From IMG/VR virus record IMGVR_UViG_3300016476_001378: a DNA stretch of 64,000 nt; one strand, given 5' to 3'. The DNA is from a virus (Duplodnaviria; Caudoviricetes). The notes beneath the pieces were generated by a model. It searched no databases, was not told the origin of the DNA, and saw only the letters and a list, made by a program, of their open reading frames with translations. Within the stretch, counting starts at the first letter, position 1. Every line of letters starts with the position of its first letter. Position numbers and translations under genes: made by a program. This document shows, piece by piece, positions 7,857-62,018 of the stretch.

Positions 7857-8312
7857 TTATTTGCGAGGAATTGATATCTGTGTATACAATTCTAATTTTT
7901 TATTGTTATTAAGTTGTCTAAGTGCTTGCTCTGAAACATTATACATTTTAGCAATCTTTGCATAATCAGCTGGAACAGTTTCGCCTCTCCAGTTTTTAGA
8001 CAAACCAACCTCAACAACCATTGGAGGTGTTACTTTTGCTTTAACACCCATTGGTAAATTAAGCTTAAGACCACCATAAATTTGTCCAGATCTTAAAGCA
8101 TTGGCTGCTTGTGGGTTTGCTGCAATCAAAGCATCTAATGTGATGTTATAATCTTGTGCAATACGAGACGGACTCTCGCCTGTTGATACTGTGTGAACAT
8201 TAGCTTGGGCTAATCTTACAAAAATATCATTTAAAGATGCTGCTTCTTTTTCAAAGCCTTTATCTTCAAGTTCGTTAACAATTGCATTAATTTCTGCTAA
8301 AATAGTTCTCAT
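7857..8312 (-). CDS. LysM-repeat protein with N-terminal shared tag
   Basis: Likely start MRTIL (8312, AGGAAAG SD); two LysM-like repeats (HTVSTGESPSRIAQDYNIT..ANP; KIAKMYNVSEQALRQLN). Confidence 0.75.
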   Translation of the reverse strand: MRTILAEINAIVNELEDKGFEKEAASLNDIFVRLAQANVHTVSTGESPSRIAQDYNITLDALIAANPQAANALRSGQIYGGLKLNLPMGVKAKVTPPMVVEVGLSKNWRGETVPADYAKIAKMYNVSEQALRQLNNNKKLELYTQISIPRK

Positions 8313-8313
8313 T

Positions 8314-9216
8314 TTACTTTCCTTTAGGTTTTGTAGCCTTGGAATACGCTGGTGTATCCCCACGCATCATTTTAATTATGCGTTGTATATCTAATAAGCC
8401 ACTTCTTAACTGTAAATTTTCAGGTATTGTTGGGTCGTTTAAATTTTTAAATTTATTATTTCTGTCATATTTTTTCACATAAGGCATGAAGAAATCTAAA
8501 CCGCCTAAAATTTTTGGTAATTTAGAAGCATTGCCTTGTGCATTAGGATTACTGAATCCAATGCCTAATTCTTTAATAATTGAATCTATAATAAATTTTG
8601 CATCAGGATCGGTTATTTTATCTATATTGTTCAGATCAAATGTGCTTATTTTATGCATTTGCTCTTCACCACCCGGCATTCCACCTTGCCCATAACCCCA
8701 TGTTTTAGCTTTTCCGAGTGCAAATTTTTCCCCACTAGCTAAACCAAGAAATATCAAACCCCAAGGTTTTAAGGCTGGAATCATGTCATCCAATAAAAAG
8801 CAAACATTTTGAAGTGCAGTTAAAATTTCAATTGCTATCTCTTGTCCTGATGTATCTTCACCAGAGAAAAAAGTATCCCAGTTAAATCTTGAAGCTAAAC
8901 TAGAAGCCTTAATTAAGTTGTCCAACGCATCATAAGCGAACGAAATTTGGAAAGCTTTACTGACATTTGCAGATATTACGGGAGGTATTTTGATAGCACT
9001 CAAGAAATTACTAAATCCTGCTGCTTTTAAAAATGGGCTCAAAGCTTCAACTCTTTGAATAATAAGCTTTAATAATTCTTGCAGACCCTTGGCTTGTGAA
9101 AGCCTAACCATAATATTATGAGCTTTATCAGCTTGCACGTATAAACCTTTATTTTCAAGATTTATAGCAATTTCAAATAATGAATTAATTTCAGTGTTGC
9201 CCATAATTTGCTCCAT
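8314..9216 (-). CDS. Hypothetical protein with N-terminal shared tag
   Basis: 300-aa ORF; AINLENKGLYVQADKAHNIMVRLSQ. Confidence 0.7.
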   Translation of the reverse strand: MEQIMGNTEINSLFEIAINLENKGLYVQADKAHNIMVRLSQAKGLQELLKLIIQRVEALSPFLKAAGFSNFLSAIKIPPVISANVSKAFQISFAYDALDNLIKASSLASRFNWDTFFSGEDTSGQEIAIEILTALQNVCFLLDDMIPALKPWGLIFLGLASGEKFALGKAKTWGYGQGGMPGGEEQMHKISTFDLNNIDKITDPDAKFIIDSIIKELGIGFSNPNAQGNASKLPKILGGLDFFMPYVKKYDRNNKFKNLNDPTIPENLQLRSGLLDIQRIIKMMRGDTPAYSKATKPKGK

Positions 9217-9229
9217 AGTTCACTTATTA

Positions 9230-9255
9230 ATTATAAATAAAAGATAGGGGCCCCT
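9230..9255 (-). promoter_or_regulatory. Putative phage promoter AGG-N17-TATAAT
   Basis: AGGggcccctatcttttattTATAAT on the minus strand. Confidence 0.55.
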
Positions 9256-9328
9256 TGTAAAATTTTATCTTAAAATCGTGAAATAATGCTCTATAGTAGT
9301 AAGTTTTAAGGTTGGGGAGATAAAATTT

Positions 9329-10771
9329 ATGGCTACTATTAAAATTTCACCAGATTTCTTCACAAAGGAAATTTTGAATTACAGTGATTGGCAAAGTGCT
9401 TTTTGGCGCGAGCTGTTTCAGAATTCTATTGATGCTGGCGCTAAGAACATTGAAATTCAAACAGAAGTTTCTCGCAACAATGTTATTGTCACATTTAAAG
9501 ATGATGGCAAGGGCATGGATAAAAAGACTTTGGAAGAAGTATTTTTCAGCCTTGGTTCGACTACAAAGACAAACCAAGATTCTGTTGGTGGCTTTGGTAA
9601 AGCTCGTATTATTTTATGTTTCGCCCAAACTGAATACATGATTAGAACTAATCAACTGTTTGTTCGTGGCTCTGGGGCAGACTATGAAATAGAAGAAGAT
9701 TACAAATATGTAAAAGGTTGTGAATTTTTAATTACAGTTCCAGTTAACAAATTTTATTCAAACCAAGATGCATTTGAAAATTCACTAAAAACTTTCTTAT
9801 CAAGATGTAATTTAAATTGCAAGGTAACAATTAATGGGACAGTCTGGAATAATTGGACAAAACAAAGAGGCAAGGTTCGACAGCTTGACTTTGCAAAAGC
9901 AATCGCTGTAAAAGATGGCGAAAAGAATAGAATTCTTTTCAGGGTAAATGGCTTGTGTATGTTTACAAGATACTCAAGCTACCCAAACTTAGTAATAGTT
10001 GAAATTAACCCCAGTGTATCTAGAAATGTTCTATTGTCAAATAGGGATTCTATTAATTATCATTATTCTGACCAAGTTGATGATTTTATAAATTGTTTAA
10101 ATAATGACAATTTGTCAGCCTTTAGAAATGATGAGGTAATTAATACTATCATCACTGGTAAATCAAGAACATTCAAATCAAAAAGAAAAGCAGTAATAGA
10201 AGCGAGTTATGAATGCGACACACAATCATTCCTTACTAGACCCCAGGGCGAAATTCATTATCAAGTAACAGACATCAATGAAGAAAATGAAGACGATGGC
10301 CTCATAATTGTTACCAAGACGAATGACGCAAAAATCAAGCGAGCCTCACGTTCTTTTAAGCCAGACAACATGGAAGATAAAAGCCGCAAGAAAAAGCTCT
10401 TAAATCAATGGATTATAGCCTGTGAGTACGCTTTAGAATCTTATTGCCACTTAACAGCCAAGGAAGAAATGAGTTGGAGGCCAGGTTTGGTCTTTGACAA
10501 AGATGTAGAGGCTTGCCACCAGAAGCAAGAAGATAATTCGCATGCTTTGATGTTAAATCCAATCTTTTGTTCTGGTGAAAATTTAGGAAAGATTAAATTT
10601 TCTTTAAATAATTTTGGCGACCATGTAAAGCTGTTAACTTTGGCTGCTCACGAGGTAGCACACTGCTCTAGAAGCTATCATGATGAGACTTATGCCAACT
10701 TATTCACTGATATAGTGGCTGATTTGATGCAGAATGTTAACAAAGTCAGCAAGGAAATGAAGCTGGCTTAG
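9329..10771 (+). CDS. GHKL (HATPase_c) ATPase with C-terminal HEXXH metallopeptidase-like motif
   Basis: RELFQNSIDAGA, DDGKGM, GSTTK, GGFGKA; C-terminal AAHEVAH...H. Confidence 0.75.
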   Translation: MATIKISPDFFTKEILNYSDWQSAFWRELFQNSIDAGAKNIEIQTEVSRNNVIVTFKDDGKGMDKKTLEEVFFSLGSTTKTNQDSVGGFGKARIILCFAQTEYMIRTNQLFVRGSGADYEIEEDYKYVKGCEFLITVPVNKFYSNQDAFENSLKTFLSRCNLNCKVTINGTVWNNWTKQRGKVRQLDFAKAIAVKDGEKNRILFRVNGLCMFTRYSSYPNLVIVEINPSVSRNVLLSNRDSINYHYSDQVDDFINCLNNDNLSAFRNDEVINTIITGKSRTFKSKRKAVIEASYECDTQSFLTRPQGEIHYQVTDINEENEDDGLIIVTKTNDAKIKRASRSFKPDNMEDKSRKKKLLNQWIIACEYALESYCHLTAKEEMSWRPGLVFDKDVEACHQKQEDNSHALMLNPIFCSGENLGKIKFSLNNFGDHVKLLTLAAHEVAHCSRSYHDETYANLFTDIVADLMQNVNKVSKEMKLA

Positions 10772-11817: not shown

Positions 11818-12402
11818 TTAGATAGAACTAAAGCCAACATTATAAACAACATGGTCTGAAAAATGGATATTTGCACAAGCTTGCTGTAATTCTTTTAATA
11901 AACGATAATCTTCTGTGCGACCATTTGTAAATCTCAAATTATGTATGTTTAAGAATCTTAATTTAACAGCAAATGAGATTCCAACCTGGCCCATCGCTAA
12001 TTCTTTCATGCCTTCTGGTGGTAAAACAACACCATTGGTAAATCTCATTTTAAAAATACAAACGTCCATGTTTGGATGTTTGTCTAATTCATTATAAAAA
12101 GCTTCTATGTAATTTGGCTGGAAAGAATCATCATCATCCAGAAAGCAAATCCAATTTGTCTCGGCTAGGTCTATAGCTTTATTTCTAACAGCTCCACCAC
12201 CATTAAAGCCATCACCAATCTTGGCAGAATTATAATAATGAATAATCCTGTTGTCAGAAATGGGTGGAGTTGGCAAATCTTCTTTGGTAATGCCATCAAA
12301 AGAAACAATGCAACGCCACATTGGGTTGGTTTGCTGCTTCAATGAAAGCAGGGCTGCATTTAAGCTATCACGGCCCTTACTAGGAATGATTACAGTTATC
12401 AT
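11818..12402 (-). CDS. Glycosyltransferase family 2 (GT-A)
   Basis: ITVIIPS, RNKAI, FLDDDD, ED motifs. Confidence 0.85.
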   Translation of the reverse strand: MITVIIPSKGRDSLNAALLSLKQQTNPMWRCIVSFDGITKEDLPTPPISDNRIIHYYNSAKIGDGFNGGGAVRNKAIDLAETNWICFLDDDDSFQPNYIEAFYNELDKHPNMDVCIFKMRFTNGVVLPPEGMKELAMGQVGISFAVKLRFLNIHNLRFTNGRTEDYRLLKELQQACANIHFSDHVVYNVGFSSI

Positions 12403-12689
12403 TTTAGTCCTGATAAATCTTGCATGATTTCAACCAAAGCATCAGCATAAATGTGATGATTGGCAGCTTCAAGCTTTTTGGCATAAGTAAATAAACTAGC
12501 AGCTGTTCTCAATGATTCAACAGAAGCTGATTTCTTGCCTTTAGATTTGCCCTTTATTTTATTTAACTGTTTATAAGCTATTGCATAAGCGATTGCTTTT
12601 TGCTCTTTCTCACTCTTCTCAGGATAAAAGTCTTTTTTTGATAATAATTCTGATACTAAATCTTCAACAAATTTTGGCATAATAATCAC
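12399..12689 (-). CDS. Hypothetical basic protein with C-terminal shared tag
   Basis: KAIAYAIAYKQ; AKKLEAANHHIYADAL. Confidence 0.6.
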   Translation of the reverse strand: MIIMPKFVEDLVSELLSKKDFYPEKSEKEQKAIAYAIAYKQLNKIKGKSKGKKSASVESLRTAASLFTYAKKLEAANHHIYADALVEIMQDLSGLK

Positions 12690-12785: not shown

Positions 12786-13634
12786 TTAATAGAGGCCCCA
12801 GAAAGGCCAACTTCCATTATAAGCAGGAGTTGGGCTACCAGAACAGATGTTAAAGCCAGCAGCAGCGCCAGTATTTGTTCTAAATGTACAGGCTGGTACT
12901 GAATAATCTGCACTTGTTGGACAAAGCGCAAGAAATTGCTTTACATTCATCCATTTAGCATGGCCATCTGCATAGGCAAATGTCAATCCATCTGAGTGCG
13001 GGGCATTGTTCTTATCTGGTGTGCCATTTGGCATCAAATAAGTAGTCCAAGACTCACGCAAGGCGGCTGGCCAAAGCACACTACTGGAGCTAATGTACGA
13101 GAAGCTAACCTGATTACGAAGCTCCATCATTACCCATGTGTCAGCAGGAGTTTGAACGCCTGCGAGAGTGCCACCTAGGAAGCTAGGATTTTCGCCAGAA
13201 GGGTTAATTGGACGACCACTAAGGGAAAGGTTCATAGCGTAACCATCGCCCTTGTATTCGCCATTTACGTTCCATGCTTCAACATCACGGGTACGAGATG
13301 GACAGCGGAAAATGTTTGCATTCTTGGTATAAGGCAAAACCCAAGCTGGCCACTTATAATGGTTGATGCGTGTAGCAAAACCACCAGTCGCATTTGGGTT
13401 GAGAGGGGAAGATGATGCCCAGTAATCAGCACGAGGATAGTTCTCATCATAATCCTGTGCATACATAAGGAGGCCTAGACCGACCTGCTTCATGTTGGAA
13501 AGACAAGATGTTTGACGAGCCTTCTCACGGGCCTGAGCAAATACAGGGAAAAGAATAGCTGCGAGAATCGCAATGATAGCGATAACTACTAGAAGTTCGA
13601 TGAGTGTAAAAGCACTCTTCTTGGAATTTGTCAA
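12786..13634 (-). CDS. Prepilin-type N-terminal cleavage/methylation protein, DUF1559 / H-X9-DG family
   Basis: SA|[39 protein letters not shown]; FRCPS; [15 protein letters not shown]; TTG start with GGAG SD. Confidence 0.92.
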
Positions 13635-13737
13635 TTTATTCTCCTAAATTTTTTAATTATTTATTAATAATTCCACACTGAATTATCGCTCTTAACACAA
13701 ACATATAATATTATAAATTAATTTATTAATATTAAAA

Positions 13738-16261: not shown

Positions 16262-17170
16262 TTAGCGAACTGGGTTGCCAAACTGGTCAAGAACAGGCAT
16301 TCCACCAGCGGTGTATACAGACTTACCCCACATAAAGTTGTTTGGATTAACAGTCTGCTCAAACTTCATCCACTTTGAGTGGCCGTCAGAGAATGTATAG
16401 GTTGCACCACCTGCATGGCGATCTGGTTGCATGTAAGCAATCTGAAGAGCACCACCAGCGTAACCTGGAGCCTTACATGTAGCCCATGCTTGAGAAGCAA
16501 GCGCAGGTGTGACAGCATAAACAGCTGAAAGGCTAGGAGCAAACTGTGAAGAATCTTCACCCTTCCATGTTCCACCAGAAACACTGGTCATAAAAGCATT
16601 GGTTGATCTATGGCTCTTATTTACATAAGCTCCACCACTTGTTCCAGCATTTGATGTGTCATTGATACAAGCGAGTGTATTTGTCATCTCTGCGATAACA
16701 ATAGTGTCAGCTGGTGCGTCAAGAGCAGCAAGAGTGGTAACATTTGCTGGGTCGATAGAACGACGTTTGCGTGGGAGTACTGCTGCATTTGCAACATAAG
16801 AAATGCGTGGGGCTTGATTATCAAGGCCAGGATTTGTTGGAGGAACACCCTTGTTTGGGTCAGAAGGGCAAACGAACAAAGCAGTGTTCTTTACATAAGG
16901 CTGAATTAAGCCTGACCACTGATTGTAGCCATTAGCGCCATTGAGGTCATTTGCATACCAGTAAGCCTGTGGGTATGTTTCATCGTAGTCTTGTGCATAC
17001 ATGGTGATACCAAGGCCCATTTGCTTGGTGTTTGAAAGGCAGCTTGTTTGGCGAGCCTTGTCACGAGCCTGTGCGAAAACAGGGAAGAGGATAGCGGCAA
17101 GAATTGCAATGATTGCAATGACTACGAGAAGTTCGATGAGTGTAAATGCACTCTTCTTAGAATTGTTCAA
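16262..17170 (-). CDS. Prepilin-type DUF1559 / H-X9-DG protein
   Basis: SA|[28 protein letters not shown]; FVCPSD; [15 protein letters not shown]; likely TTG start at 17170. Confidence 0.92.
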
Positions 17171-19403: not shown

Positions 19404-20141
19404 ATGAACTTTTCACTTGACACTAAAAAAATAAATTACAAGCCAAGTGTAGTTGTAGCTGTAGCGGGTCATTCCTATACACCTAACTTTGTCTTCAGTT
19501 GGAGTAAATTCACAGTTTCTGTGGCAAATACCCAGAAGATCAACATGACTTACACAAATGCTTATTCGCCAAACATTTACCACTGTAGAAACATTCTGCT
19601 TGGTGGTAACAATCTTGGTGGTACTTATCAGCCACCCTGGGGCGGTAAATTTAATTATGATTACATCATGTTTATTGATACCGACCAAGTCTTTGAGCCA
19701 GAAGATGCCTACCGCTTGATTGATACTATGGAATCCAATCCAAAGATTGATGTTCTTGCTGGTATGTATGTCATGGCTGACAATACTTTGTCTACAGTTA
19801 TTCTTGACTGGGATGAAGAGTTCTTTTCAGAGCATGGACGTTTTGATTTCAAGACACCACGTCAAATGCAGGAACTCGGCAAGGCATCACCAAACGGCTT
19901 GGTAAAGGCTTTCTATGGTGGTCTTGGCTTCTCCATTTTCCGCAAGGGAGTATTTGATAAGTTGGAGTATCCATGGTTTGAGCCTATTACTCACAAGGTT
20001 GGTCGTGGGACAGACCTCATGGGCGAAGATGTTTCGCTATTCTGGAAGCTTAATCAAAAGGGCGTAGATTTCTGGGTAGATCCATTTATCTACGTTGGAC
20101 ATGAGAAGCATCAGATTCTCAAGCCACCAGCTCTCGTTTAA
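19404..20141 (+). CDS. GT-A fold glycosyltransferase-like protein
   Basis: YDYIMFIDTD, GLGF, PWF, GEDVSLF, VGHEK. Confidence 0.75.
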   Translation: MNFSLDTKKINYKPSVVVAVAGHSYTPNFVFSWSKFTVSVANTQKINMTYTNAYSPNIYHCRNILLGGNNLGGTYQPPWGGKFNYDYIMFIDTDQVFEPEDAYRLIDTMESNPKIDVLAGMYVMADNTLSTVILDWDEEFFSEHGRFDFKTPRQMQELGKASPNGLVKAFYGGLGFSIFRKGVFDKLEYPWFEPITHKVGRGTDLMGEDVSLFWKLNQKGVDFWVDPFIYVGHEKHQILKPPALV

Positions 20142-20597: not shown

Positions 20598-21200
20598 TTA
20601 CTCGCTAATTTTTCTTTCAGGTGGAGTAACGATATTATCAATGACTCCATAAGCTTTAGCTTCTGTAGCACTCATCCAATAATCTCTCTCACAGTCTCTT
20701 TTGACTTTCTTTTTATCTTGCTTTGTATGCTTCGACAGAATGTCTAAAAGTTGGTCATAGAGCTTGTTTGTTTCTGCAACTTGAATGTTGATGTCTGCAG
20801 CAGTGCCTTGGAATCCACTAGAAACTTGGTGAATCATGACTCTTGAATGCTGTAGGCAGCTCCTTGTTCCAGTGCCTCCAGCGAGTAGAACAGCTCCCAT
20901 AGATGCCGCAGATGCAAGGCAGGTTGTATTTACAGGAGAATCCATGAGTTGCATGACATCGTAGATGCCAAGTCCAGCACTAACACTACCTCCAGGACTA
21001 TTGATATAGAATTCAATTGGGAGACCCTTGGAACCCTTATCATGGTCAAGAAATAGGAATTGGGCGATGATCACACCTGCGGTCTGATCATTTACTTCAT
21101 CGTTAAGAATAACGATTCTGTCTTTAAGCAAACGGGAGAAGAGGTCATAAGAACGCTCTCCTCCCAATGGTGATTGTTCAACAACGTATGGTATTAACAT
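20598..21200 (-). CDS. clpP: ATP-dependent Clp protease proteolytic subunit
   Basis: YDLFSRLLKDRI, YINSPGGSV, AASMGA (Ser), MIHQ (His), ERD (Asp). Confidence 0.95.
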   Translation of the reverse strand: MLIPYVVEQSPLGGERSYDLFSRLLKDRIVILNDEVNDQTAGVIIAQFLFLDHDKGSKGLPIEFYINSPGGSVSAGLGIYDVMQLMDSPVNTTCLASAASMGAVLLAGGTGTRSCLQHSRVMIHQVSSGFQGTAADINIQVAETNKLYDQLLDILSKHTKQDKKKVKRDCERDYWMSATEAKAYGVIDNIVTPPERKISE

Positions 21201-21206
21201 ACCATA

Positions 21207-21503
21207 TTATTGTTGATTAATTTGGTTTTCCGCAATGAAATTTTCTAAATTAGATTTAGCTGTGTTTAAATTTTCCATCATGCTAGAAACTTCAGGCATG
21301 TCAGGCTTCATCTGCAGAATGTTTAAATTCAATTCAACAGCCCTCTTTAAATTTATGGCAGCGTCTATACCACCTTGAGGGTTGGAAAGAAATTTATTAA
21401 CTGCATCCAGAGTTTGAGTAAAATCTTTAATAGAATCCGCTTCTGCGTATCTTTGATTTTTCTCAAGCGCTGAAATAACTTTTGACAATTTAATTAAACT
21501 CAT
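21207..21503 (-). CDS. Hypothetical protein with N-terminal shared tag
   Basis: VISALEKNQRYAEADSI. Confidence 0.6.
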   Translation of the reverse strand: MSLIKLSKVISALEKNQRYAEADSIKDFTQTLDAVNKFLSNPQGGIDAAINLKRAVELNLNILQMKPDMPEVSSMMENLNTAKSNLENFIAENQINQQ

Positions 21504-43525: not shown

Positions 43526-43595
43526 AGTTTATTATGTGTTTAAAAATAACAAAAAGCCCCTTAGAAATTAATCTAAGGGGCCTCTTTTTAATTAA

Positions 43596-43895
43596 CTATG
43601 AACCATCAGGTTCAACTACATCAACTGCATTTATCCATTTTGGTCTTGTTTTCAACGCATGATACAAACAAGCTCTAAAGTCGTATGAGTACTCCATGTC
43701 AATGTCAAGCAAAGAAAAATCTTCTACAGCTCCCCAGATAGGTTGCTTGCCTTGATTTCTAGCTGCTTGCGAAACGTATAAACTCAATCTAACTGTAACT
43801 ACAGGATTATCATCGCAATGGACCAAAGCGCTGATAATTTTCCAATAGTTTCCAGAAATGCCTGATGGTAATTCTTCGTACAATTCAAAAGCCAT
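43596..43895 (-). CDS. Hypothetical protein, possibly a tail-fibre accessory protein
   Basis: Likely start MAFEL; YWKI...LYVSQAAR...Y.ALK...AVDV. Confidence 0.55.
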   Translation of the reverse strand: MAFELYEELPSGISGNYWKIISALVHCDDNPVVTVRLSLYVSQAARNQGKQPIWGAVEDFSLLDIDMEYSYDFRACLYHALKTRPKWINAVDVVEPDGS

Positions 43896-43896
43896 T

Positions 43897-44532: not shown

Positions 44533-44541
44533 ACACATTCT

Positions 44542-44567
44542 ATTATAACAGCAAACAATCTAAACCT
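44542..44567 (-). promoter_or_regulatory. Putative phage promoter AGG-N17-TATAAT
   Basis: AGGtttagattgtttgctgtTATAAT. Confidence 0.55.
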
Positions 44568-45666: not shown

Positions 45667-45677
45667 TATAATCAAAA

Positions 45678-45795
45678 AGAGGGCGAGTGGGCTTTTACCC
45701 ACGGCGTTTCAAGAGTACCACTCTTTTGAGTTGTGTGACCCGGTATTTCGCCCTCTCCCTTCCTAGTTGGAAGTCCTCAGATTATCAATCCTCGT
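45678..45795 (-). ncRNA. Unidentified structured RNA with tRNA-like T-arm/acceptor stack
   Basis: 9-bp closing stem 45678-86/45748-56 enclosing GTGGG-TAAAAG-CCCAC and AAGAGT/ACTCTT hairpins; upstream CTTCC/GGAAG hairpin; TTGTCA-N17-TACAAG promoter-like site. Confidence 0.45.
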
Positions 45796-45835
45796 ATTAT
45801 TACTTGTACAGATTTTCAACGCGATTGACAATCTG

Positions 45836-47155
45836 TTATATTATCTGTTCTAATCGCCCAGTTGAATCACCAATTTTTTCTTGTGGGATGCCTATTTTAT
45901 CTGTCATAGATAAAAATAGATTAGTCATTGGTGTACCATTATTAAATTTGTAATCTTTCCCAGATTTGATTTTGCCACCAGCATGACCTGCTACAAGAAT
46001 AGGAAGATCGTCGTGGTTATGTCTATCCCCGTCACAAATACCTGCGCCATAAACAACCATAGAGTTTTCCAACAAAGTTCTATCGCCTTCTTTGATGGAA
46101 TTCATTTTATCTAAAATGTATGCTAATTGTGTTGTATGGAAGGTATTTATTTTTCTCAAAGCTTCGAGCTTTTCTGGATTCCTTTGATGGTGGGACATTT
46201 CATGGTGTCCATCATTTACTCCAATCATTTTGTAAGCTCTATTTGAGCCTTCATTCGCAAACATAAATGTAGCAACTCTGGTGGAGTCTGTTTGAAAAGC
46301 TAGAACCATTAAATCGCCAAGAAGCTTGATGTGTTCTTCATAATCTGATGGAATCCCCTGGAGATTTTTAAGCTGTTTATAATCTGTAGATTCAGAAGTC
46401 ATCTTATTAGAAAATGCTATTCTTCTTTCAATCTCTCTGATACCAGTCATGTATTCATCTAGTTTAGCTTGATCTGTGCGCCCTAATTTTTTATTTAAAA
46501 TCTTAGCATCTTCCATGATAAAATCAAGAATGGATTTATCTTCTTGCATTCTCATAGCCCTTGAGATTGCACTCTCATTGGTATCGCCTTGGAATAGTCT
46601 TTCAAATAACAATTTGGGGTCAACTTCTTTAGCTACAGGTGTGCTTTCTGACCTCCAAGAGATAGAGTTAGAATAAGCACAAGAATAGCCCGAGTCACAG
46701 TCGCCCGCCAACCCACCTCTTTCACAACCAATTTCAATAGAGGCGAATCTTGTTTTGTCACCAATTTCGCGAGCAATGATTTGGTCAATAGAAATGCCAG
46801 ATTTAATATTGGCCCCTGAGGTTTTTCTTGGATGACAGCCTGTAAGCCAAGCAGCAGCAGATCTTGCATGGTCTCCAGGACCATCGCCAAGAGGGAAGGC
46901 ATTCTTTTGTGTCAAGCCTGACAAGACACTAAAATGACTTCTCAAGCTAGATAAAGGCTGTAAAGTAGAAGGCAGTGTTGAATTGCTTGGTATCCAATGT
47001 TCCATGTTGATACCATTTGGAACAAAGATAAATGCTGTTCTAATAGGGGCCTGAGGTGCGGAAGCATAGGCGCTATCAGGCATGATAGATTCCAAGAAAG
47101 GGAGTGCTAAAGTTACACCAAGGCCTTTCAAAACTGTTCTTCTACTTAAATACAT
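45836..47155 (-). CDS. DUF1552 family protein (Tat signal)
   Basis: LSRRTVLKGLGVTLALPFLES, GDHAR, SIDQIIA, YSCAYSNSISW, HHEMSHH, HNHDDLP. Confidence 0.9.
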   Translation of the reverse strand: MYLSRRTVLKGLGVTLALPFLESIMPDSAYASAPQAPIRTAFIFVPNGINMEHWIPSNSTLPSTLQPLSSLRSHFSVLSGLTQKNAFPLGDGPGDHARSAAAWLTGCHPRKTSGANIKSGISIDQIIAREIGDKTRFASIEIGCERGGLAGDCDSGYSCAYSNSISWRSESTPVAKEVDPKLLFERLFQGDTNESAISRAMRMQEDKSILDFIMEDAKILNKKLGRTDQAKLDEYMTGIREIERRIAFSNKMTSESTDYKQLKNLQGIPSDYEEHIKLLGDLMVLAFQTDSTRVATFMFANEGSNRAYKMIGVNDGHHEMSHHQRNPEKLEALRKINTFHTTQLAYILDKMNSIKEGDRTLLENSMVVYGAGICDGDRHNHDDLPILVAGHAGGKIKSGKDYKFNNGTPMTNLFLSMTDKIGIPQEKIGDSTGRLEQII

Positions 47156-47616
47156 TAGTTCACCTTGAATAAAGTTTCAAACTTTTCTTTTGGTATGACC
47201 ATCAATAAACCATTAGCAACGCAAACATAATCGCCAAATTTTAATGGGATCATGTAAGGACTATTAACTACAACTTTATTGATGCCATAATATCTGACAA
47301 TTGCAGATGGAGTATTTTTCTTAAAGATGCCATGGTTGCCTTCTCTTCGAAGAAAGTTTAAATTATAACTGCTAGTAAATTCTTTGACATTAGTAGTTTT
47401 GTATGTAGTTTTATCTTCCAAAGAACGATTGCTGTAATAAAATTCTTCGGTTGCCTGACCCATTTCATCAAAGATTTGTGTTAGTTTATATTCGCATAAA
47501 TCTTGATACATTTTGCCCTTCTTTTCAATAAGAGGGACAAAATGTTCGCACATCTTAGCGTATGAAATTAATTCTTTGCTACAATAAACTCTAAATAAAG
47601 TTTTTAATTTTTCCAT
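47155..47616 (-). CDS. Hypothetical protein
   Basis: 153-aa ORF coupled to DUF1552. Confidence 0.55.
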   Translation of the reverse strand: MEKLKTLFRVYCSKELISYAKMCEHFVPLIEKKGKMYQDLCEYKLTQIFDEMGQATEEFYYSNRSLEDKTTYKTTNVKEFTSSYNLNFLRREGNHGIFKKNTPSAIVRYYGINKVVVNSPYMIPLKFGDYVCVANGLLMVIPKEKFETLFKVN

Positions 47617-47660
47617 TCCACGCCTCGCTACCCAATGACTTTGTGATAGATCAAATTAGG

Positions 47661-50468
47661 TTAGAATTTAAAGCCAAACTTGGCCGCAGCTGTGTAATTT
47701 GCACTATTGGCTGCAGAACGATTATTGCTGTAAGTTCCTGTCAAACTGAAAGAGAATCTCTCTCCACTATTGTGTGTAAATCCTAAGGAATAAATTTCTA
47801 ATTCTCTAGATGATGAACCTGAGAAAAATTGATTTTTGTATTCGCTAATTAGGTTACTAGTACCAAATCTCCAACCTAACTTTAATCCTGTTTCATTATA
47901 CAGTGGAGAGCCTCCAGCCTTAACAATGACATCAGTTGGTGTCCCCTTTAAATATTCAACACTAGAATAAGTACCTGATAATTCAAGGTTATTAAATCTG
48001 GTAGCAAAGCCGTAACCACGCTTTTCAACCGTACTCAAAGTTCCAGGCTTTATTGGATCGTCAGGGTTTAAGATGTAATTGCCTTGCAAGGCCAATCCCT
48101 TAATTGCATTGACTTGCACCACTGTATTTGTAGTATCACTATTTAACAAAGGATTATTGTCTGTAGATTCTCTCATTTTGACAGAAGAATCAACTTTAAA
48201 TAGTGTTTTATTTGTACCGAAAGCTGCGCGATAATCTCTCACATCAATTCTTTGGGCCCCATTTGATGAAGTTGAAACTGCTGTTTGCAAAGTTGCTGTA
48301 GGCAAATTATAAGAGAATGAATGCTTCACAGATGAAAAAGTTCTGTCATTGATAGTGTTTTCTTGCTGTTCAGTTGTTAAAGTTATGTTCTTTGAAGGAA
48401 CAAGATTAACGCCTAGCCCAGTTTTAGTTTCTACTATATTCCCGTTCTCACTGTTATAGTTATTAACAGAAACTCCAACAGATGTGCCTCGACCCCAAAT
48501 TGGCGTAGAAACACTCACTGCATTATCTTTGACATCATGATTAGTGTTAGCGGTTTGTGTTGAGCTTTGATTTGCAGAAGCAACAACATTTGCAGAACCT
48601 ACTACACTTTGAATCTTAAACTTATCAGCTACACTATTTGTATCAATTTTGTTTTGTGTGGAATCTGTATTTGTTCTTTGAAATTCAAAACCTGGTGAAC
48701 GCTTTTTAGCAGGAGCTGCAAAACTAAATCTTTGTTGGTCAATTTTACCTGTTGTTTTATCAGAGCCAACAAGATCAGAGCTAATTGATTCAAGATTAAA
48801 CAAACCGGGGCCCAATTTTAAAGAAACATTGCCAGAGTCAGACATCACAGTATTGTTTTTGCCATCAGGAGTGTATGTTTCCGTGGTTCCTGTGCGAATT
48901 GTAAGGTTAGCGCCACCAACAAGGGATTTAACCTCTGTAAGCTCGTTAGAAGAGCCCACAAGCACACCCTTGTCATTTCGTTTTATGTTTTCATTTATTG
49001 TAAACTTTGCTACAGGCACAGATTTGGTAGATGGCAAAGAGAACAATAAGTTCTGTTCACTAACATCTTTTCTGTCAGTACCATTGACATTTGAATCAAC
49101 CTTGTTGAAGTTAAAACTAAATTGGGTTTTATTTAAACTCGCAGAAAAAGAACCTTTATCATTGATTGAATTAATAACTGTGTTATTTGTAGTGGTATCA
49201 TTCTCTACGCGCCCAAAATCAACTCCACCAAAACCATGTTTATTACCTTTAAATCCAAGATTATAAACTCTTTGGTCGGTTTGTATTGACCTGCTACCAA
49301 TTTGTGTATTAGTTTGATTTGACGCAAAACCCAATGTGCCACCAGATAATTTAGTATTGTAATTAACAGTATCTGTAACAGTGTCTATTTGGCCTGTTTT
49401 CGGATCTTGTTTGCTGTCAGTGGTACGATTGAATTTCAATTGTGGCAAGCTTGCAGACAAAACATTTTGATTAGTTACAGTTCGTGTTTTATTAGATGTA
49501 ACATCACTAGAAGTTGTTTTGTAGGCTAAATCTAAGGCCCCAAATTTTGAATTTAAATTACCATTCTCGCTACGATTAGAAGAAAATACACCCTTGGCGT
49601 CTGTGCCTTGTTGATCATTGACAGAATAATTTAAAAGGGGCTTATTCCCACCACCAAACTTAAAAGCAGCATTTTGAGTAGTATTTTCTACAGAACTATT
49701 TAAGCTCTTATTATCGTTAAAGTTAAATATTAAACTGCTATCTTTACTCGGGCTAAATTTTCCATTCAGAGAAGACACCTCGGAAGAGTCTGTTGTACCA
49801 AAACTCTTACTGTATGGAGAGAACCCTTTCCCGCCACGTTGGTAGGCTGCATTTAAGCCATTGGTATTATTGCCTGTTGCATAACCTAGCTTAACAGCAC
49901 TTTGATTCGTTAAGTTTGTTTGCCCTGTAACATTTGGGGCTAAATACAATTCACTATTTAAACCACCAGCTCTAGAAGCATAATTTAAAACAGTGGCAGG
50001 TGCTGTATTCATGCTGCTACTTGGGAATGTTGTTAATTGTAGATTCTTCACACCTAGGGCGGCCAATTTAAAAGTCAAAGGAGCTGTTAAAGCTGGATTG
50101 GAGTTCTTAGTAGCAGACTCTGGATAATAACTATAATTAACCTTGACAACTTGTGTTCTTTTGATTAGTTGGTTAAAAGTTATTTCACCCTTTTCTAGAT
50201 TGATAGAGTAATCGCTAGTTCGCAGGGGCAAATCATCAACAGTTACCCAGACAGGATAACCTGGTGCTAAGATGAAGTTTCTCCAAGAAAGAACATAAGG
50301 CCCCTTTTTATCTTGACCTAAAAAACTATCAGCTGTCCGATCAGGCTCTGAAAGATTAGACAAGGTTTTAGGAACCCTATTAATTTGTTGAAATAAGGGG
50401 GTTTGTTGTGCGAAGCTGGTCGCACTCATAAATATTATAATAGTAGTAATTGAAAGTTTAGAAAACAT
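47661..50468 (-). CDS. Large secreted beta-strand-rich protein, possible outer-membrane protein
   Basis: Signal peptide from MFSK (50468); DYSINLEKGEITF; S/T/N-rich amphipathic strands; ends AAAKFGFKF. Confidence 0.6.
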   Translation of the reverse strand: MFSKLSITTIIIFMSATSFAQQTPLFQQINRVPKTLSNLSEPDRTADSFLGQDKKGPYVLSWRNFILAPGYPVWVTVDDLPLRTSDYSINLEKGEITFNQLIKRTQVVKVNYSYYPESATKNSNPALTAPLTFKLAALGVKNLQLTTFPSSSMNTAPATVLNYASRAGGLNSELYLAPNVTGQTNLTNQSAVKLGYATGNNTNGLNAAYQRGGKGFSPYSKSFGTTDSSEVSSLNGKFSPSKDSSLIFNFNDNKSLNSSVENTTQNAAFKFGGGNKPLLNYSVNDQQGTDAKGVFSSNRSENGNLNSKFGALDLAYKTTSSDVTSNKTRTVTNQNVLSASLPQLKFNRTTDSKQDPKTGQIDTVTDTVNYNTKLSGGTLGFASNQTNTQIGSRSIQTDQRVYNLGFKGNKHGFGGVDFGRVENDTTTNNTVINSINDKGSFSASLNKTQFSFNFNKVDSNVNGTDRKDVSEQNLLFSLPSTKSVPVAKFTINENIKRNDKGVLVGSSNELTEVKSLVGGANLTIRTGTTETYTPDGKNNTVMSDSGNVSLKLGPGLFNLESISSDLVGSDKTTGKIDQQRFSFAAPAKKRSPGFEFQRTNTDSTQNKIDTNSVADKFKIQSVVGSANVVASANQSSTQTANTNHDVKDNAVSVSTPIWGRGTSVGVSVNNYNSENGNIVETKTGLGVNLVPSKNITLTTEQQENTINDRTFSSVKHSFSYNLPTATLQTAVSTSSNGAQRIDVRDYRAAFGTNKTLFKVDSSVKMRESTDNNPLLNSDTTNTVVQVNAIKGLALQGNYILNPDDPIKPGTLSTVEKRGYGFATRFNNLELSGTYSSVEYLKGTPTDVIVKAGGSPLYNETGLKLGWRFGTSNLISEYKNQFFSGSSSRELEIYSLGFTHNSGERFSFSLTGTYSNNRSAANSANYTAAAKFGFKF

Positions 50469-50486
50469 GACAAACCCCCTATTAAT

Positions 50487-50512
50487 ATTATAGTACAAAA
50501 AAGAGGGGCCCT
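50487..50512 (-). promoter_or_regulatory. Putative phage promoter AGG-N17-TATAAT
   Basis: AGGgcccctcttttttgtacTATAAT; overlaps the dnaK terminator. Confidence 0.45.
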
Positions 50513-50545
50513 GTACTAGAGCCCCTCTTAATTCTGAGATAATTA

Positions 50546-52381
<1,836 letters not shown>

Positions 52382-52467
52382 TTACATTAAATAATACAAG
52401 AAAGTTCAGAAATTTTCGTAACTTTGAAACAAAAATAAAAGGGGGATGTTCCCCCTTTTATTAGAAA

Positions 52468-52824
52468 TTACTTGACTGGAGGTTGAGCTTCGCGATTACC
52501 GCGTCCGCCGCCCTGTCCGCGGCCAGCTGCACCATCTACACCACCACGAGCATCAGCTGCAGGGAGTTCTGCCTTAGCAACAAGCTTAAGGCCATCTGCT
52601 GAATACTGATAAAGGGTGCTGCCACGAAGTACATAAACGTAGCGATCACTTGCTGCTACAGAAGCACTGCCTGCTCCACCACGAAGACCCTGGCCGCCAC
52701 CTTGACCTTGTCCAAAAGCTGGGCGGCCTTCTGGACCACCAAAGCCGCCAGGAACTGGCGCCTGTGCGAAAAGTGCTGTTGCAACAGCCGATACAGCTAC
52801 GACTGAAAGAATCATGCGATTCAT
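52468..52824 (-). CDS. Secreted Gly-rich small protein
   Basis: Signal peptide from MNRM; YVYVLRGSTLYQY core flanked by GGR/GQG tracts. Confidence 0.65.
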   Translation of the reverse strand: MNRMILSVVAVSAVATALFAQAPVPGGFGGPEGRPAFGQGQGGGQGLRGGAGSASVAASDRYVYVLRGSTLYQYSADGLKLVAKAELPAADARGGVDGAAGRGQGGGRGNREAQPPVK

Positions 52825-54102: not shown

Positions 54103-54719
54103 TTTCTATTTCTAAAAACAATATTAGCTTCATTTTGCCAAGCATCATTAGCTTGCACTGCAACAATTTCAAAATTATGTTCAGTTAAGAATTTCATCAT
54201 TGTATCAATCATAACTTGATTTTTATAGAGTGCGTTGTATTTAATAGCAACTTCTACAACGCCTTCTTTAATTTTATGAATGTGTTCACCCATGCCTTTA
54301 AGTACATTCAAATCACTGCCCTGGGTGTCACAATGGAAATAATTAATGCATTCAATGCCATGCTCTTCAATAAAAGCATCTAAACGAATAACATCAACTT
54401 CAATCTGATCTGTGATTTCAAAGTGATGTTTTACAGGCCCCCAATTTGTTTCTAACTTATCTGAATATTCAAACAAACTTGAAGCACAATGATCCCCAGA
54501 CTCATGGGAAACATTGAAATTGGCTTTGCCATTAAAGTCACTTACAGCTGTTTTAAACACAAAAACATTTTGTAAATCTTTAGCTTTTTCAACTATCTTC
54601 TCGTATGATTGAGGAACTGGCTCAAAAGCATAAAGAGTTACTCTGTCAGGATAGTCTATGGCATACTGCAATGTAGAACTACCAACATTAGCCCCTACAT
54701 CAAAAATTATATCTTTCAT
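54078..54719 (-). CDS. FkbM family methyltransferase
   Basis: FDVGANVG, AFEP, AVSD, RLD, DTQGSDLNVLKG. Confidence 0.9.
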   Translation of the reverse strand: MKDIIFDVGANVGSSTLQYAIDYPDRVTLYAFEPVPQSYEKIVEKAKDLQNVFVFKTAVSDFNGKANFNVSHESGDHCASSLFEYSDKLETNWGPVKHHFEITDQIEVDVIRLDAFIEEHGIECINYFHCDTQGSDLNVLKGMGEHIHKIKEGVVEVAIKYNALYKNQVMIDTMMKFLTEHNFEIVAVQANDAWQNEANIVFRNRNQIFNNTK

Positions 54720-54760
54720 AATATATGATTGTACATTTTTGATGTAGAAGCTATAGTTTA

Positions 54761-55114
54761 TTATTTAAGTAAAAGAAGATACTTGGTTTTATTTAAGAGA
54801 CCCAACATTTCATCACGAATGTTTAGGAGATCTGTGTCTTCTTTTTTAAGTTCTTTTGGCAAATCATTGGTAAGATAATCAACAAAAACGTCAATCATGT
54901 CAACTGGCTTGCTGTCAAGGTTTTCTAATTTCATCTTCACGCCACCGCTTGGAACAACGATTCCATTCTTGCCTTGAAAAACTTCAACGAATTCATCAAT
55001 AAGGCCGTCAAGACCTTCATAAGCCTCACCGAAAGCCTTATGTTGAGCATAAGATTCTGTTTGCCAGTGGAACATTCTGAACTGGTTTTGCATTGCTAAT
55101 AAAGAGCCGATCAT
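54761..55114 (-). CDS. Ferritin/Dps-like four-helix protein (DUF5856-like)
   Basis: FHWQTESYAQHKA...DEFVE..QG...LLNIRDEM...KYLL. Confidence 0.8.
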   Translation of the reverse strand: MIGSLLAMQNQFRMFHWQTESYAQHKAFGEAYEGLDGLIDEFVEVFQGKNGIVVPSGGVKMKLENLDSKPVDMIDVFVDYLTNDLPKELKKEDTDLLNIRDEMLGLLNKTKYLLLLK

Positions 55115-55159
55115 AATTGTAAATACCTTTTTAAAAGTCGCTATATTTAATATTACAAT

Positions 55160-55444
55160 ATGTTTCCACTGGACACCTATTTAAAGAACTGTAAAATAAG
55201 AACTATGATGAATGATCAATTATCACCCGGCGAAACCATTGCTCAGATTATCAAACATAGAAAAATGAGCAATGCCAAACTTGCACAAGAATTAGAGATA
55301 AGCTTAAGTAGGCTAAATAACATTCTTACAAACAAAGAGAAACTGGATGAAGAAATGTTTCATGCACTGCAAATAGTTTTAGGGTTTCATCACAGTTATT
55401 GGAAAAGCTTGCAAGATAATTGGAATAACAAAAGGGGCCATTAG
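55160..55444 (+). CDS. HigA-like XRE helix-turn-helix protein
   Basis: SPGETI...MSNAKLAQEL.IS...I...W..LQ; real start may be at MMND. Confidence 0.75.
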   Translation: MFPLDTYLKNCKIRTMMNDQLSPGETIAQIIKHRKMSNAKLAQELEISLSRLNNILTNKEKLDEEMFHALQIVLGFHHSYWKSLQDNWNNKRGH

Positions 55445-56080: not shown

Positions 56081-56404
56081 TTATTTAATTCTTTTAATTT
56101 TGAAAACTGGCTTTTCTTCTTCAAATTTAAATTGCTCTACATGAGGTTCCATAGCCAAACTATCATCTACTTTATCTTCGTCTGGGTTCGGAACAATTGG
56201 ATTTAAATCTTCGAGCATTTTTAAATAATTCTGCTGATCAATCTCATGCTGATCTGCATCTTCAAAGGAGCGATCTACATTTAAATCTTTGAATTCATTG
56301 GCAATTCTAATAAAGAGGCTCTGAACAGCATCAGCTTGCTTCAATAAACCTTTATCTTCTAAAGAAATAATTATGTTATCTAATTCTGATAAAATTGAGT
56401 CCAT
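56081..56404 (-). CDS. Hypothetical protein with N-terminal shared tag
   Basis: IISLEDKGLLKQADAVQSLFIRIA. Confidence 0.65.
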   Translation of the reverse strand: MDSILSELDNIIISLEDKGLLKQADAVQSLFIRIANEFKDLNVDRSFEDADQHEIDQQNYLKMLEDLNPIVPNPDEDKVDDSLAMEPHVEQFKFEEEKPVFKIKRIK

Positions 56405-56414
56405 TGTTTTGTCC

Positions 56415-57149
56415 TTACTTTAATAAACTTGTGACTGAAGGTGAACTCCAGAATTTGCATGACCAGTATTTAGCTGTTGTTTTGTCCTTGGCTCTTGGGT
56501 CTGTATCACAATTGTGGCGAGCTCTGAAATTCTTTCTTCTATTAGGGTCGTCGCGCTTGATACTAAGGTTTGGATCGCCGAATGTTACTTTTACGATGTT
56601 GCCTTTGTCATTTTTGACATAAACTGCAAATTTTTTGGGGCCGCCTGGTGTTCTAAATGGCTTATTAAGTTTTACATTACCCGGCTTCTTTGCAGCAGTT
56701 CTATGTTTCATTGACATTTTAGTAAAATCAACGCCTGGGAAAAGATTATTAAGCAAGGTTTCTTTTACATGCTGCTTGCATTTGCATTTGCTGTCTTTGC
56801 AAACACAGTGCATACCCTTCATTTGGAGAGTACCTTTGCACTCTGGACAATCAATGTTACCTATACCAACTCTATGAAGAAATTCTTCTATTTCATCCTT
56901 CATGTCGATGGTACAATCGCAGTCATCATCACCACAATTACAGAGGCCATCTTCCATGTCCATCTCACCACCACATTCTGGACATTTAACACCTTCTTTT
57001 TCAAGAAGCTTTAAAATCTTGCCAACCATAGGGTCTTCATCAGACGCAATTCTATTCAAAGAAGCGGTGACTATGTCAGCTTCATTATAAAAACCCATTT
57101 CATCTAATTTGTCTGCGATTGCAGCTAAACGAACTGCTATTTGATACAT
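56415..57149 (-). CDS. Tagged protein with two Cys-rich zinc modules and a conserved basic phage domain
   Basis: ADKLDEMGFYNEADIV; CPECGG/CPECKG; KLNKPFRTPGGPKKFAVYV...FGDP...FRARHNCD...YWSC. Confidence 0.7.
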   Translation of the reverse strand: MYQIAVRLAAIADKLDEMGFYNEADIVTASLNRIASDEDPMVGKILKLLEKEGVKCPECGGEMDMEDGLCNCGDDDCDCTIDMKDEIEEFLHRVGIGNIDCPECKGTLQMKGMHCVCKDSKCKCKQHVKETLLNNLFPGVDFTKMSMKHRTAAKKPGNVKLNKPFRTPGGPKKFAVYVKNDKGNIVKVTFGDPNLSIKRDDPNRRKNFRARHNCDTDPRAKDKTTAKYWSCKFWSSPSVTSLLK

Positions 57150-60058: not shown

Positions 60059-60601
60059 TTAAATGGTAATGCCTTGCAATTCTATTTTTTGCTTCATAAG
60101 CTTTTCAGCCTTTTTACAAATAGAACTTACATTTTGATGAGAACATCCAAGGATTTGTGAAATCTCTGCTGTTGAATAACCCTCAATGTATTTCATAACA
60201 ATTATTTCTTTTTGTTTATCTGTTAATGTATTAAGCGCAACCGATAAAATCTGTCTTAATTCAATACTAAGATAATCAAAATCTTCAAAAGCACAATTTG
60301 ACAAGTCTTCCAAATCAATTCTTGTATTGTTATAAGTTTTTACGTGAGCAGGATAATAGATAATTCCAGTTTCTTTGGTAGAAAATTTTCTTACATGGGA
60401 AAGAATCATATTAAAAACATGGGTTGATAATTTTGCGCCCCTATTTTTATCATAAGATCTTACAGCATCTATAATGCCTATTTTTGCTACTTGGTATAAA
60501 TCATCAAACTCATTTCTGCCAGAGTATTGACGGGCAATTTTCTTAGCCATGTTATCAAATTGGACAAGTGCTTCTTTTTCAGCTACATTATTCATTTGCA
60601 T
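60059..60601 (-). CDS. Small sigma-70 family RNA polymerase sigma factor
   Basis: Region 2 DDLYQVAKIGIIDAVRSYD...LSTH; region 4 LTDKQKEII...YSTAEISQILGCSHQNVS. Confidence 0.88.
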   Translation of the reverse strand: MQMNNVAEKEALVQFDNMAKKIARQYSGRNEFDDLYQVAKIGIIDAVRSYDKNRGAKLSTHVFNMILSHVRKFSTKETGIIYYPAHVKTYNNTRIDLEDLSNCAFEDFDYLSIELRQILSVALNTLTDKQKEIIVMKYIEGYSTAEISQILGCSHQNVSSICKKAEKLMKQKIELQGITI

Positions 60602-61175: not shown

Positions 61176-61197
61176 GTTATTATTATGGTGCATCGAC

Positions 61198-61223
61198 AGG
61201 TTTATAAGATTATTTTTTATAAT
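61198..61223 (+). promoter_or_regulatory. Putative phage promoter AGG-N17-TATAAT
   Basis: AGGtttataagattatttttTATAAT. Confidence 0.55.
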
Positions 61224-61247
61224 GACTCTTATAGGAGGGTGATTCAA

Positions 61248-61631
61248 ATGAACAAAATCGCTAAATCAGTTAAGCCAGACGAAATGGAAGGTGGACACAA
61301 GTCCCCACCTAAAGGATACCCACAAAAGGAAAGCAAGTATGCTGATCCTGTGAACTTTAAGTACCCTATTGACACAGAGAAACACGCTCGCGCAGCTTGG
61401 GCGTACATTCACCAAAAGAGAAACAAGAGCAAGTATTCTACAGAGGAATTTAATTACATCTGCGGAAGAATTAAAGCAGCATTAAAGAAATTTAAAGTTG
61501 AAATTGAAGAAGAACAAAAGAAGAAAGCAAGCATCTTAGAGGGCTTGCACAGAACAGCTTCAAGATTAGAAGATCTTGGTATGTTTAAAGAAGCTGAAGT
61601 TCTCAATGACACTTTTGATAAGTTAATTTAA
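61248..61631 (+). CDS. DUF6582-like protein with C-terminal shared tag
   Basis: Start MNKI (GGAGG SD); YADPVNFKYPIDTEKHARAAWAYI; ASRLEDLGMFKEAEVL. Confidence 0.7.
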   Translation: MNKIAKSVKPDEMEGGHKSPPKGYPQKESKYADPVNFKYPIDTEKHARAAWAYIHQKRNKSKYSTEEFNYICGRIKAALKKFKVEIEEEQKKKASILEGLHRTASRLEDLGMFKEAEVLNDTFDKLI

Positions 61632-61640
61632 GAGGGTAAT

Positions 61641-62018
61641 ATGAAACAAGTAGTCAGTAGCATTTGTGAAACTATAAATGAACTAGAAAGTAAGAACCTT
61701 TTTAAAGAGTCTGATACACTTAGGGGCATTCTAGTAAAACTTGTTACTGCAGACTTGCGTGATTGGTTTCAAGAAAAGTGGGTTGATGTCCGCCGAAAGA
61801 AAAAAGATGGCGGATATCATCCTTGTGGCAGAGGAGACATAAGTAAAGGCAAAAAGCCAGTATGCACCCCTGCTAATAAAGCTAAAAATCTTTCAAAAAA
61901 AGAACGAACTCAAAGAATGAAAGAAAAAGCTAGAAAAGAACGCGAACCAAATCCAGACAAAAAACCTAATGTAACACAATATTCAGAAGGTGCTGGTGGT
62001 AAATCCAATATATCTTAA
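61641..62018 (+). CDS. Basic phage protein with N-terminal shared tag
   Basis: INELESKNLFKESDTL; LRDWFQEKWVDV...PCGR...P.C.P. Confidence 0.7.
   Translation: MKQVVSSICETINELESKNLFKESDTLRGILVKLVTADLRDWFQEKWVDVRRKKKDGGYHPCGRGDISKGKKPVCTPANKAKNLSKKERTQRMKEKARKEREPNPDKKPNVTQYSEGAGGKSNIS

Follow-up and report, generated by a model that had tools for sequence, protein, structure and literature searches.

The internal proteins of the bacteriophage T4 head are diverse and have nothing in common but the conserved capsid-targeting sequence (CTS) (PMC3012670; PMC5694885). We examined an element that recalls it in a 64,000-nucleotide stretch of DNA from a large uncultured phage (IMG/VR record IMGVR_UViG_3300016476_001378; this whole stretch is called the window below). 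A preliminary description of the window had reported a segment of about 30 residues in eight otherwise unrelated proteins and proposed that it sorts cargo into the virion. We refer to the segment as the hairpin tag. Like the T4 CTS, which is carried by IPI-III and Alt, the hairpin tag is a short shared N-terminal element on diverse small proteins encoded in variable gene arrays. The T4 CTS ends in a motif attributed to the head protease, and the end of the hairpin tag may be such a motif too. The role predicted for the hairpin tag is likewise to bring cargo into the prohead core and to be removed thereafter. The T4 CTS has 10-20 residues and no reported autonomous fold, is N-terminal only, and is cut after L/I-x-E. 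In contrast, the hairpin tag has 33 residues, is predicted to fold, can stand at either end of a protein or occur in it twice, and has its putative cut after [KR]-h-[AS], where h is a hydrophobic residue. Address tags on head cargo are thus known in principle; the hairpin module itself is not a known one.

Other phages offer partial parallels. Fusions to the C-terminal region of the P22 scaffolding protein carry foreign proteins into P22 capsids (PMC9962691), and the helix-turn-helix of that protein is its coat-binding domain (PMC9965877; bioRxiv 10.1101/2022.12.13.520362). The P22 domain and the hairpin tag are both two-helix hairpins with a conserved basic residue, functionally important in P22. 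However, the P22 element is C-terminal, belongs to a single scaffold protein and leaves the capsid intact, whereas the hairpin tag is mostly N-terminal and found on dozens of proteins. Searched against all PDB sequences, the tag profile returned no scaffold protein at E ≤ 10. In the giant phages SPN3US, phiKZ and 201phi2-1 many internal head proteins have removable N-terminal regions that are thought to target them to the prohead (PMC5694885; PMC10052503). Such propeptides are longer than 100 residues, have A/S/G-x-E as their cleavage site and show relatedness only between paralogs; they do not form a single compact module common to unrelated families. Outside phages, the cargo-loading peptides of encapsulins, whose shells have the HK97 fold, and the encapsulation peptides of bacterial microcompartments are short N- or C-terminal tags that are joined by flexible linkers to unrelated cargo and dock it to the shell interior. 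They are about 10-20 residues long or form a single helix, are not cleaved, and have no sequence relation to the hairpin tag.

In the window, seven of the eight described copies stand as members of one family (Table 1). All eight peptides were found by translation where the preliminary description had placed them, and the start codons that it had assumed at 8312 and 61248 are the likely ones. Hidden Markov models (HMMs) were built from the eight segments, leaving one out at a time, and run over all 1,228 frames of the window's six-frame translation. Five copies were clearly recovered and that of protein 5 marginally, as the best match outside the training set despite its E of 0.37; those of protein 3 and of the protein at 12399-12689 were missed. 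A profile was also iterated over the window and the proteome of G001, a 358-kb IMG/VR contig that is estimated to be 89% complete and was the best near-complete relative used. The iterated profile recruited the copies of proteins 3 and 5 and gave zero matches to reversed decoys. Since leave-one-out models and iterated profile together recruit seven copies and never that of 12399-12689, we retain seven. The excluded candidate looks like a hairpin by eye. Broader profiles failed to recruit it too, one iteration having drifted to tetratricopeptide repeat (TPR) proteins and been discarded, and the G001 ortholog (62 residues) lacks the C-terminal part. No ninth copy was found in the window by profile search. 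When protein 2 is counted from Met5, the N-terminal tags of the window, six in all, begin at residue 4-5. The six core tagged genes form three adjacent co-directional pairs against 0.44 expected (p = 0.005).

Table 1. Features of the window. E-values are from leave-one-out models (LOO), the iterated profile or Pfam; aa, amino acids.
Feature	Coordinates	Strand	Remarks
Tagged protein 1 (151 aa)	7857..8312	-	N-terminal tag, then two LysM repeats (Pfam LysM, 9e-12)
Tag of protein 1 (residues 4-36)	8205..8303	-	Ends R-L-A-Q; LOO E = 1e-8
Tagged protein 2 (300 aa)	8314..9216	-	No Pfam family; adjoins protein 1, same direction
Tag of protein 2	9094..9192	-	Ends R-L-S-Q; LOO E = 7e-7
Tagged protein 3 (98 aa)	21207..21503	-
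Tag of protein 3	21402-21494	-	Divergent; missed by LOO; iterated profile 3e-6
Tagged protein 4 (107 aa)	56081..56404	-	Acidic, no known domain
Tag of protein 4	56297-56395	-	LOO E = 7e-6
Tagged protein 5 (244 aa)	56415..57149	-
Tag of protein 5	57042-57140	-	Ends R-I-A-S; LOO E = 0.37; iterated profile 1e-10
Tagged protein 6 (127 aa)	61248..61631	+	Pfam DUF6582 (3e-21), then C-terminal tag
Tag of protein 6	61533-61628	+	LOO E = 2e-3
Tagged protein 7 (125 aa)	61641..62018	+	Tag, then basic DUF5872-like domain (below Pfam cut-off)
Tag of protein 7	61650-61748	+	LOO E = 4e-5
Candidate C-terminal copy in protein 12399-12689	12408..12512	-	Unsupported as family member; recruited by no profile
M-W-Y-[KR]-x-[AS] protein	27198-27926	-	N-terminal pattern
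M-W-Y-[KR]-x-[AS] protein	43897-44538 (likely start 44532)	-	N-terminal pattern
ClpP-like gene	19404-20141	+	Convergent with the next
ClpP-like gene	20598-21200	-
Full-length DnaK gene	50546-52336	-
Auxiliary genes	1073-2509; 6204-7846; 38786-40063; 45836-47155; 60059-60601

The fusion partners agree with the preliminary description, which had named LysM, zinc, basic and unknown domains: they are LysM, DUF6582, Cys-rich zinc-ribbon-like repeats and basic domains below the Pfam cut-off. In protein 5 the tag is followed by two Cys-rich zinc-ribbon-like repeats and a basic, DUF5754-like C-terminal domain (below the Pfam cut-off). The helix-turn-helix that had been read from the letters was borne out by AlphaFold models of the tag and of the full LysM protein, and the tag is predicted to be a 33-residue antiparallel two-helix hairpin. 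Modeled alone from a 24-sequence alignment, it has helices at 2-15 and 18-32 with a mean pLDDT (predicted local distance difference test) of 95.4. In the single-sequence model of protein 1 the helices span 4-17 and 21-44, the tag pLDDT is 64-87, and the hairpin is the best-predicted part. The conserved pattern consists of hydrophobic positions in helix 1, an L-[DE]-x-x-G turn, an aromatic-x-E-A opening of helix 2, and a [KR]-hydrophobic-[AS] end.

A profile made from 24 sequences (A2) was searched against 1.84 billion cluster representatives. It matched 870 proteins with E ≤ 1e-3, 132 of them with E ≤ 1e-10. Among the best 150 matches, 124 are of the tag type; another 14 are NB-ARC proteins of fungi, and in these every TPR_10/TPR_12 repeat matches the profile. 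The tag is N-terminal in about 95% of the tag-type matches, lying at residues ~6-38 in 118 of the 124. It is usually preceded by M-N-K-[RK]-[QT] in the 109 N-terminal single-tag proteins, which are 41-435 residues long (median 156). Identity between tags averages 65%, and the regions behind them form at least 53 groups without similarity detectable by blastp. The linker after the tag is acidic (24% D+E). By Pfam, known cargo domains are only scattered, with FHA in two proteins and zinc ribbons. An HMM scan of related phages found further tag copies in related jumbo-phage contigs, which come from freshwater samples. Seven IMG/VR contigs of 56-358 kb carry from 3 to about 24 copies each, and in two big contigs further copies lie already within 20 kb around unrelated matches. 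About 24 of the 421 G001 proteins (6%) have a canonical or short-form tag, seven of them encoded in a tandem run at 145.5-151.6 kb.

No family in Pfam or PHROGs covers the tag and no PDB sequence matches it. The best hit in the ESM Atlas scored 0.84, below the meaningful level, and a tblastn search of 50,697 GenBank phage records with the tag gave no match. Judged by these sequence searches, the tag, whatever its function, is a protein module of very wide occurrence that has so far gone undescribed. It has no entry in the domain and structure databases searched and merits definition as a family.

That the module is portable between unrelated domains, as first described, is borne out by the 53 or more cargo groups and by a tag-free cargo ortholog. 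This G001 ortholog of the cargo of protein 7 is 72% identical and untagged, its first residue lying 14 residues ahead of the domain. The G001 ortholog of protein 5 keeps a divergent tag and has a different middle part. The C-terminal domain of protein 5 (residues ~150-244) occurs in at least 597 IMG/VR viral stretches, nearly always without the tag. Protein 4 has seven orthologs of 79-97% identity, all seven with the tag. The tag is C-terminal in protein 6, in two G001 proteins of about 1000 residues (also found in G006) and in several database proteins. Some proteins are tagged at both ends or internally. Several of the apparently internal tags have a Met-Asn-Lys start in front of them, and the proteins concerned are probably the product of gene calls that were fused or extended too far. 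The two large G001 proteins, encoded at 74637-77492 and 77485-80511 (-), are adjacent paralogs of ~950-1010 residues with no Pfam or PHROG match, and each has a poly-acidic run followed by the C-terminal tag. The same pair is conserved in G006 with tags at 13612-13701 and 16412-16498.

Tags from the same genome have 61% nucleotide identity and use different codons at half of the conserved residues. It is therefore the peptide and not the DNA that is under selection, and an origin as a DNA repeat or by recent duplication is ruled out. Tagged proteins are soluble: segments resembling transmembrane helices are rare among them (1 of 124 and 1 of 24) compared to 59 of the 421 proteins (14%) in the G001 proteome, which rules out a membrane-anchored juxtamembrane domain.

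In length and residue pattern the tag resembles one TPR unit. Units of this kind (TPR_10 and TPR_12; PF13374 and PF13424) have 33-34 residues, a helix-turn-helix and the same pattern of small and hydrophobic positions, and the tag profile scores single repeats of the fungal NB-ARC-TPR proteins at 12-23 bits. However, TPR repeats come in arrays of at least three that form a solenoid, whereas the tag is solitary, with at most two widely separated units per protein. Pfam TPR models matched 0 of 100 tags at 1e-3, and TPR-like is therefore a description of the pattern and not a family assignment. A multi-TPR receptor encoded by the phage was also considered and rejected, as TPR_12 had no match at E ≤ 0.1 in five tag-bearing contigs. 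Foldseek returned generic hairpins only, none of them significant (E ≥ 1.2).

The end of the tag provides an indirect link to the phage head. Position 30 is K or R in 108 of 109 tags. In 105 of the 109 N-terminal tags this residue is joined by A or S at position 32, and Q comes next in 56. We counted a strict form of this motif, [KR]-x-A-[SQG]. Its only enrichment in G001 is among the head genes at 41-57 kb, where 32 were observed and shuffles gave 9.4 (p < 0.002); elsewhere in the proteome there are 98 where 93 are expected. This head-gene module encodes, at 43855-47994, a 1379-residue protein with a head-maturation-protease domain, the portal at 48118-50499, a 562-residue protein at 42020-43708 and a 344-residue scaffold-like protein at 54374-55408. 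The motif instances in it resemble tag ends, and [KR]-h-[AS] is the putative specificity of the prohead protease.

In the window, the eight proteins first named hold seven strict motifs where 2.2 are expected (p = 0.006), compared to 16 against 19.7 expected in the other 87 proteins. Four of the seven sit at or beside the boundary between tag and cargo. Two are at the ends of N-terminal tags, in protein 1 (R-L-A-Q, motif position 33) and protein 5. The other two stand just before a C-terminal element: K-K-A-S directly precedes the tag of protein 6 (residue 113 of the 148-residue frame), and K-S-A-S lies in front of the candidate in 12399-12689.

A tagged gene is also a member of the head module itself. 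In at least 21 of 44 related head-module loci, the terminase and portal genes have between them a gene for a short-form tagged protein of 146-156 residues, its tag ending K-I-A-Q, with zero decoy matches. It lies about 6 kb upstream of the portal, and in G001 it is at 56369-56809. Its product is small and acidic, has Y-Y-P-Q-Q after K-I-A-Q, and the remainder looks disordered. The cargo part has no Pfam or PHROG match.

Thirteen G001 proteins and two proteins of the window begin with another, minimal tag, M-W-Y-[KR]-x-[AS], which ends in the same motif as the hairpin tag and often has Q as the next residue. In G001 a tandem group of five such genes at 225.7-229.2 kb stands beside hairpin-tagged genes, and one more, at 50528-51055, adjoins the portal. 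Co-clustering with the hairpin-tagged genes is modest (7 of 13, where 3.3 are expected; p = 0.02).

Because the tag ends in the tripeptide enriched among head genes, the motif recurs at tag-cargo junctions and a tagged gene belongs to the head module, the tag appears to be linked to the head, which lends indirect support to the capsid loading and the R-x-[AS]-Q cleavage proposed in the preliminary description. N-terminal placement, unrelated cargo, an acidic linker and tandem arrays together make up the signature of a T4-like address label. The reading we favor, and to which we give a little less than an even chance, is that the tag is a removable address label that loads the proteins fused to it into the phage head and is clipped off by the head protease. 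The tag would bind one common receptor in the prohead, either a scaffold or core component or the inner capsid surface. A soluble protein fused to it would co-assemble in the head and later be delivered with the DNA, and the head-maturation protease would probably then clip the tag at the [KR]-hydrophobic-[AS] junction. We infer all three elements, receptor, packaging and cleavage.

A number of observations weigh against this reading. Most tagged genes stand at a great distance from the head module, in the company of auxiliary genes that include purA, clpP and those for thioredoxin and a sigma factor. What follows the putative cut is variable, being Q in only 51%. The strict head motif fits only two of the nine canonical G001 tags, and the cargo parts are not enriched in it (5 against 6.3 expected). 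C-terminal tags, which need no cut downstream, keep the K/R, and this residue may therefore serve binding and not cleavage. Bona fide internal and double tags, too, agree more with a pure binding module than with a signal peptide. Where the cargo has peptidoglycan domains (LysM, PG_binding_1, GH108), it is compatible with ejection and could equally consist of ordinary cytoplasmic lysis proteins. No cultured carrier of the tag was found, Phage G, Tunturi_5 and LR745208 being without it. In G001 the word GAATAA[AG] precedes 6 of 11 tagged genes compared to 16 of 161 others (p = 7e-4) and also several structural genes, but this evidence is weak because the word was noticed first in the tagged set.

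Two of the peptidoglycan-domain proteins are encoded in G002. One has PG_binding_1 with a GH108 muramidase domain (497 residues, region 87886-87978) and the other PG_binding_1 alone (174 residues, 52388-52486). In each of them the tag is directly followed by a Gly/Ala/Thr-rich stretch of weak hydrophobicity, similar to a signal-arrest-release segment.

Several of these observations would suit a hairpin that serves docking or oligomerization outside the virion. Tags could pair with each other in a four-helix bundle, or they could dock to one cytoplasmic hub of phage or host, gathering small effectors. The positional freedom of the tags, which may be N-terminal, C-terminal, internal or present twice in a protein, is consistent with such a role, as are the location of tagged genes mostly among auxiliary genes and the K/R retained in C-terminal tags. 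The nearest structural look-alikes, none significant, also pair or dock (Rop, the UvrB C-terminal hairpin, the L12 N-terminal domain and TPR). Such a hairpin leaves unexplained why the head-module motif forms the tag end, why the strict motif is found in the window at junctions of N-terminal and of C-terminal tags alike, why one conserved member of the head module is tagged, and why 95% of tags are N-terminal. We regard it as rather unlikely.

The tag could also act inside the capsid without being removed. In this variant of the address-label reading it would be a retained docking element similar to the P22 scaffold domain, with the basic residue of helix 2 used for binding. The helix-turn-helix fold with a near-invariant K/R in helix 2 is consistent with this, as are the C-terminal tags that follow long acidic runs in the two ~1000-residue proteins of G001 and G006, and fusions to the C-terminal region of the P22 scaffold do load foreign cargo (PMC9962691). 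However, the profile detected no sequence relation to any solved scaffold domain, the tags are mostly N-terminal, unlike in P22, and the head-type junction motif at both ends argues for removal. We consider retention improbable.

The phage encodes a possible recognition partner for the tag in its ClpP pair and its DnaK. The tag would in that case be a degron or chaperone-client tag that times protein abundance. Two ClpP paralogs and DnaK are encoded in the window, the gene for protein 3 is directly upstream of clpP (its other neighbor is a gene for an Ig-like-domain protein), and both clpP-like genes of G001 have a tagged neighbor. TPR domains are classic Hsp70 partners; to our knowledge, though, a single TPR-like unit cannot form the known Hsp70-binding clamp. 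The adjacency is absent from G002 and G003, where the nearest tags are 16-26 kb away, and the G004 and G006 fragments are tagged with no ClpP found on them. Moreover, degrons are normally short and unstructured, whereas the hairpin tag is predicted to fold. We reject a ClpP-linked degron, as clpP adjacency is not conserved, and consider the proposal as a whole very improbable.

Least probable of all is that the tags have no common partner and are stabilizing or solubilizing helical caps, or a DNA-level or translational leader spread by duplication: tandem arrays do suggest duplication and the cargo is often short and probably disordered, but the differing codons exclude a DNA repeat, occurrence at either terminus excludes a translation leader, and 65% tag identity over at least 53 unrelated cargo groups, with polar surface residues conserved, is left unexplained.

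The address-label reading can be extended from the window to the whole family. We suggest only tentatively, as a possibility well short of an even one, that the hairpin is the universal either-terminus capsid-loading address of a large clade of uncultured jumbo phages, clipped at [KR]-h-A and used by more than 50 families. If true, the load tagged in this way would be about 6% of the proteome, or about 9% with the minimal M-W-Y-[KR]-x-A tag. It would constitute a natural modular packaging system much larger than that of T4 and directly reusable for engineering. If the address-label reading holds, a compact folded tag that works at either end would be at hand for loading large capsids with foreign proteins. 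The proteins that an entire uncultured clade of giant phages packages and ejects could then be read directly from sequence, providing a catalogue of candidate host-takeover and anti-defense proteins.

The preliminary description also placed six of the eight genes in units headed by an AGG promoter or a near-match, and this part was not confirmed. A word of the AAGGG type lies well upstream of only two of the eight genes, the others having just Shine-Dalgarno-like words at the start codon. Enrichment of k-mers in the intergenic regions of the window gave only AAAGGGG/GGGCCCC-type and AT-rich words, and no promoter class can therefore be assigned.

The window is AT-rich (G+C ~36%). Its gene products include DnaK, two ClpP paralogs, an ammonium transporter, a Ro60/TROVE-like protein, PurA, thioredoxin, a sigma factor and a conserved 898-residue structural-type protein. 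Only 29 of the 95 genes called in the window have counterparts in G001. The closest match of the G001 portal in a cultured phage is the portal of Bacillus phage G, at 27.8% identity. The auxiliary load is unusual for a phage, with, in the order of the coordinates in Table 1, a CsgG-like protein, adenylosuccinate synthetase plus a MarC-family membrane protein, an ammonium transporter, a DUF1552 (HXXSHH) protein and a sigma-70-family factor.

A sigma70-like extended -10 word in G001 clusters at 153-187 kb and precedes none of 11 tagged genes, a point in favor of the address-label reading. This stretch is dense in small genes on both strands. The word has the form TGATATAAT, often with a TTTGTCAAA-like word about 40 nucleotides upstream, and the stretch may be an early region.

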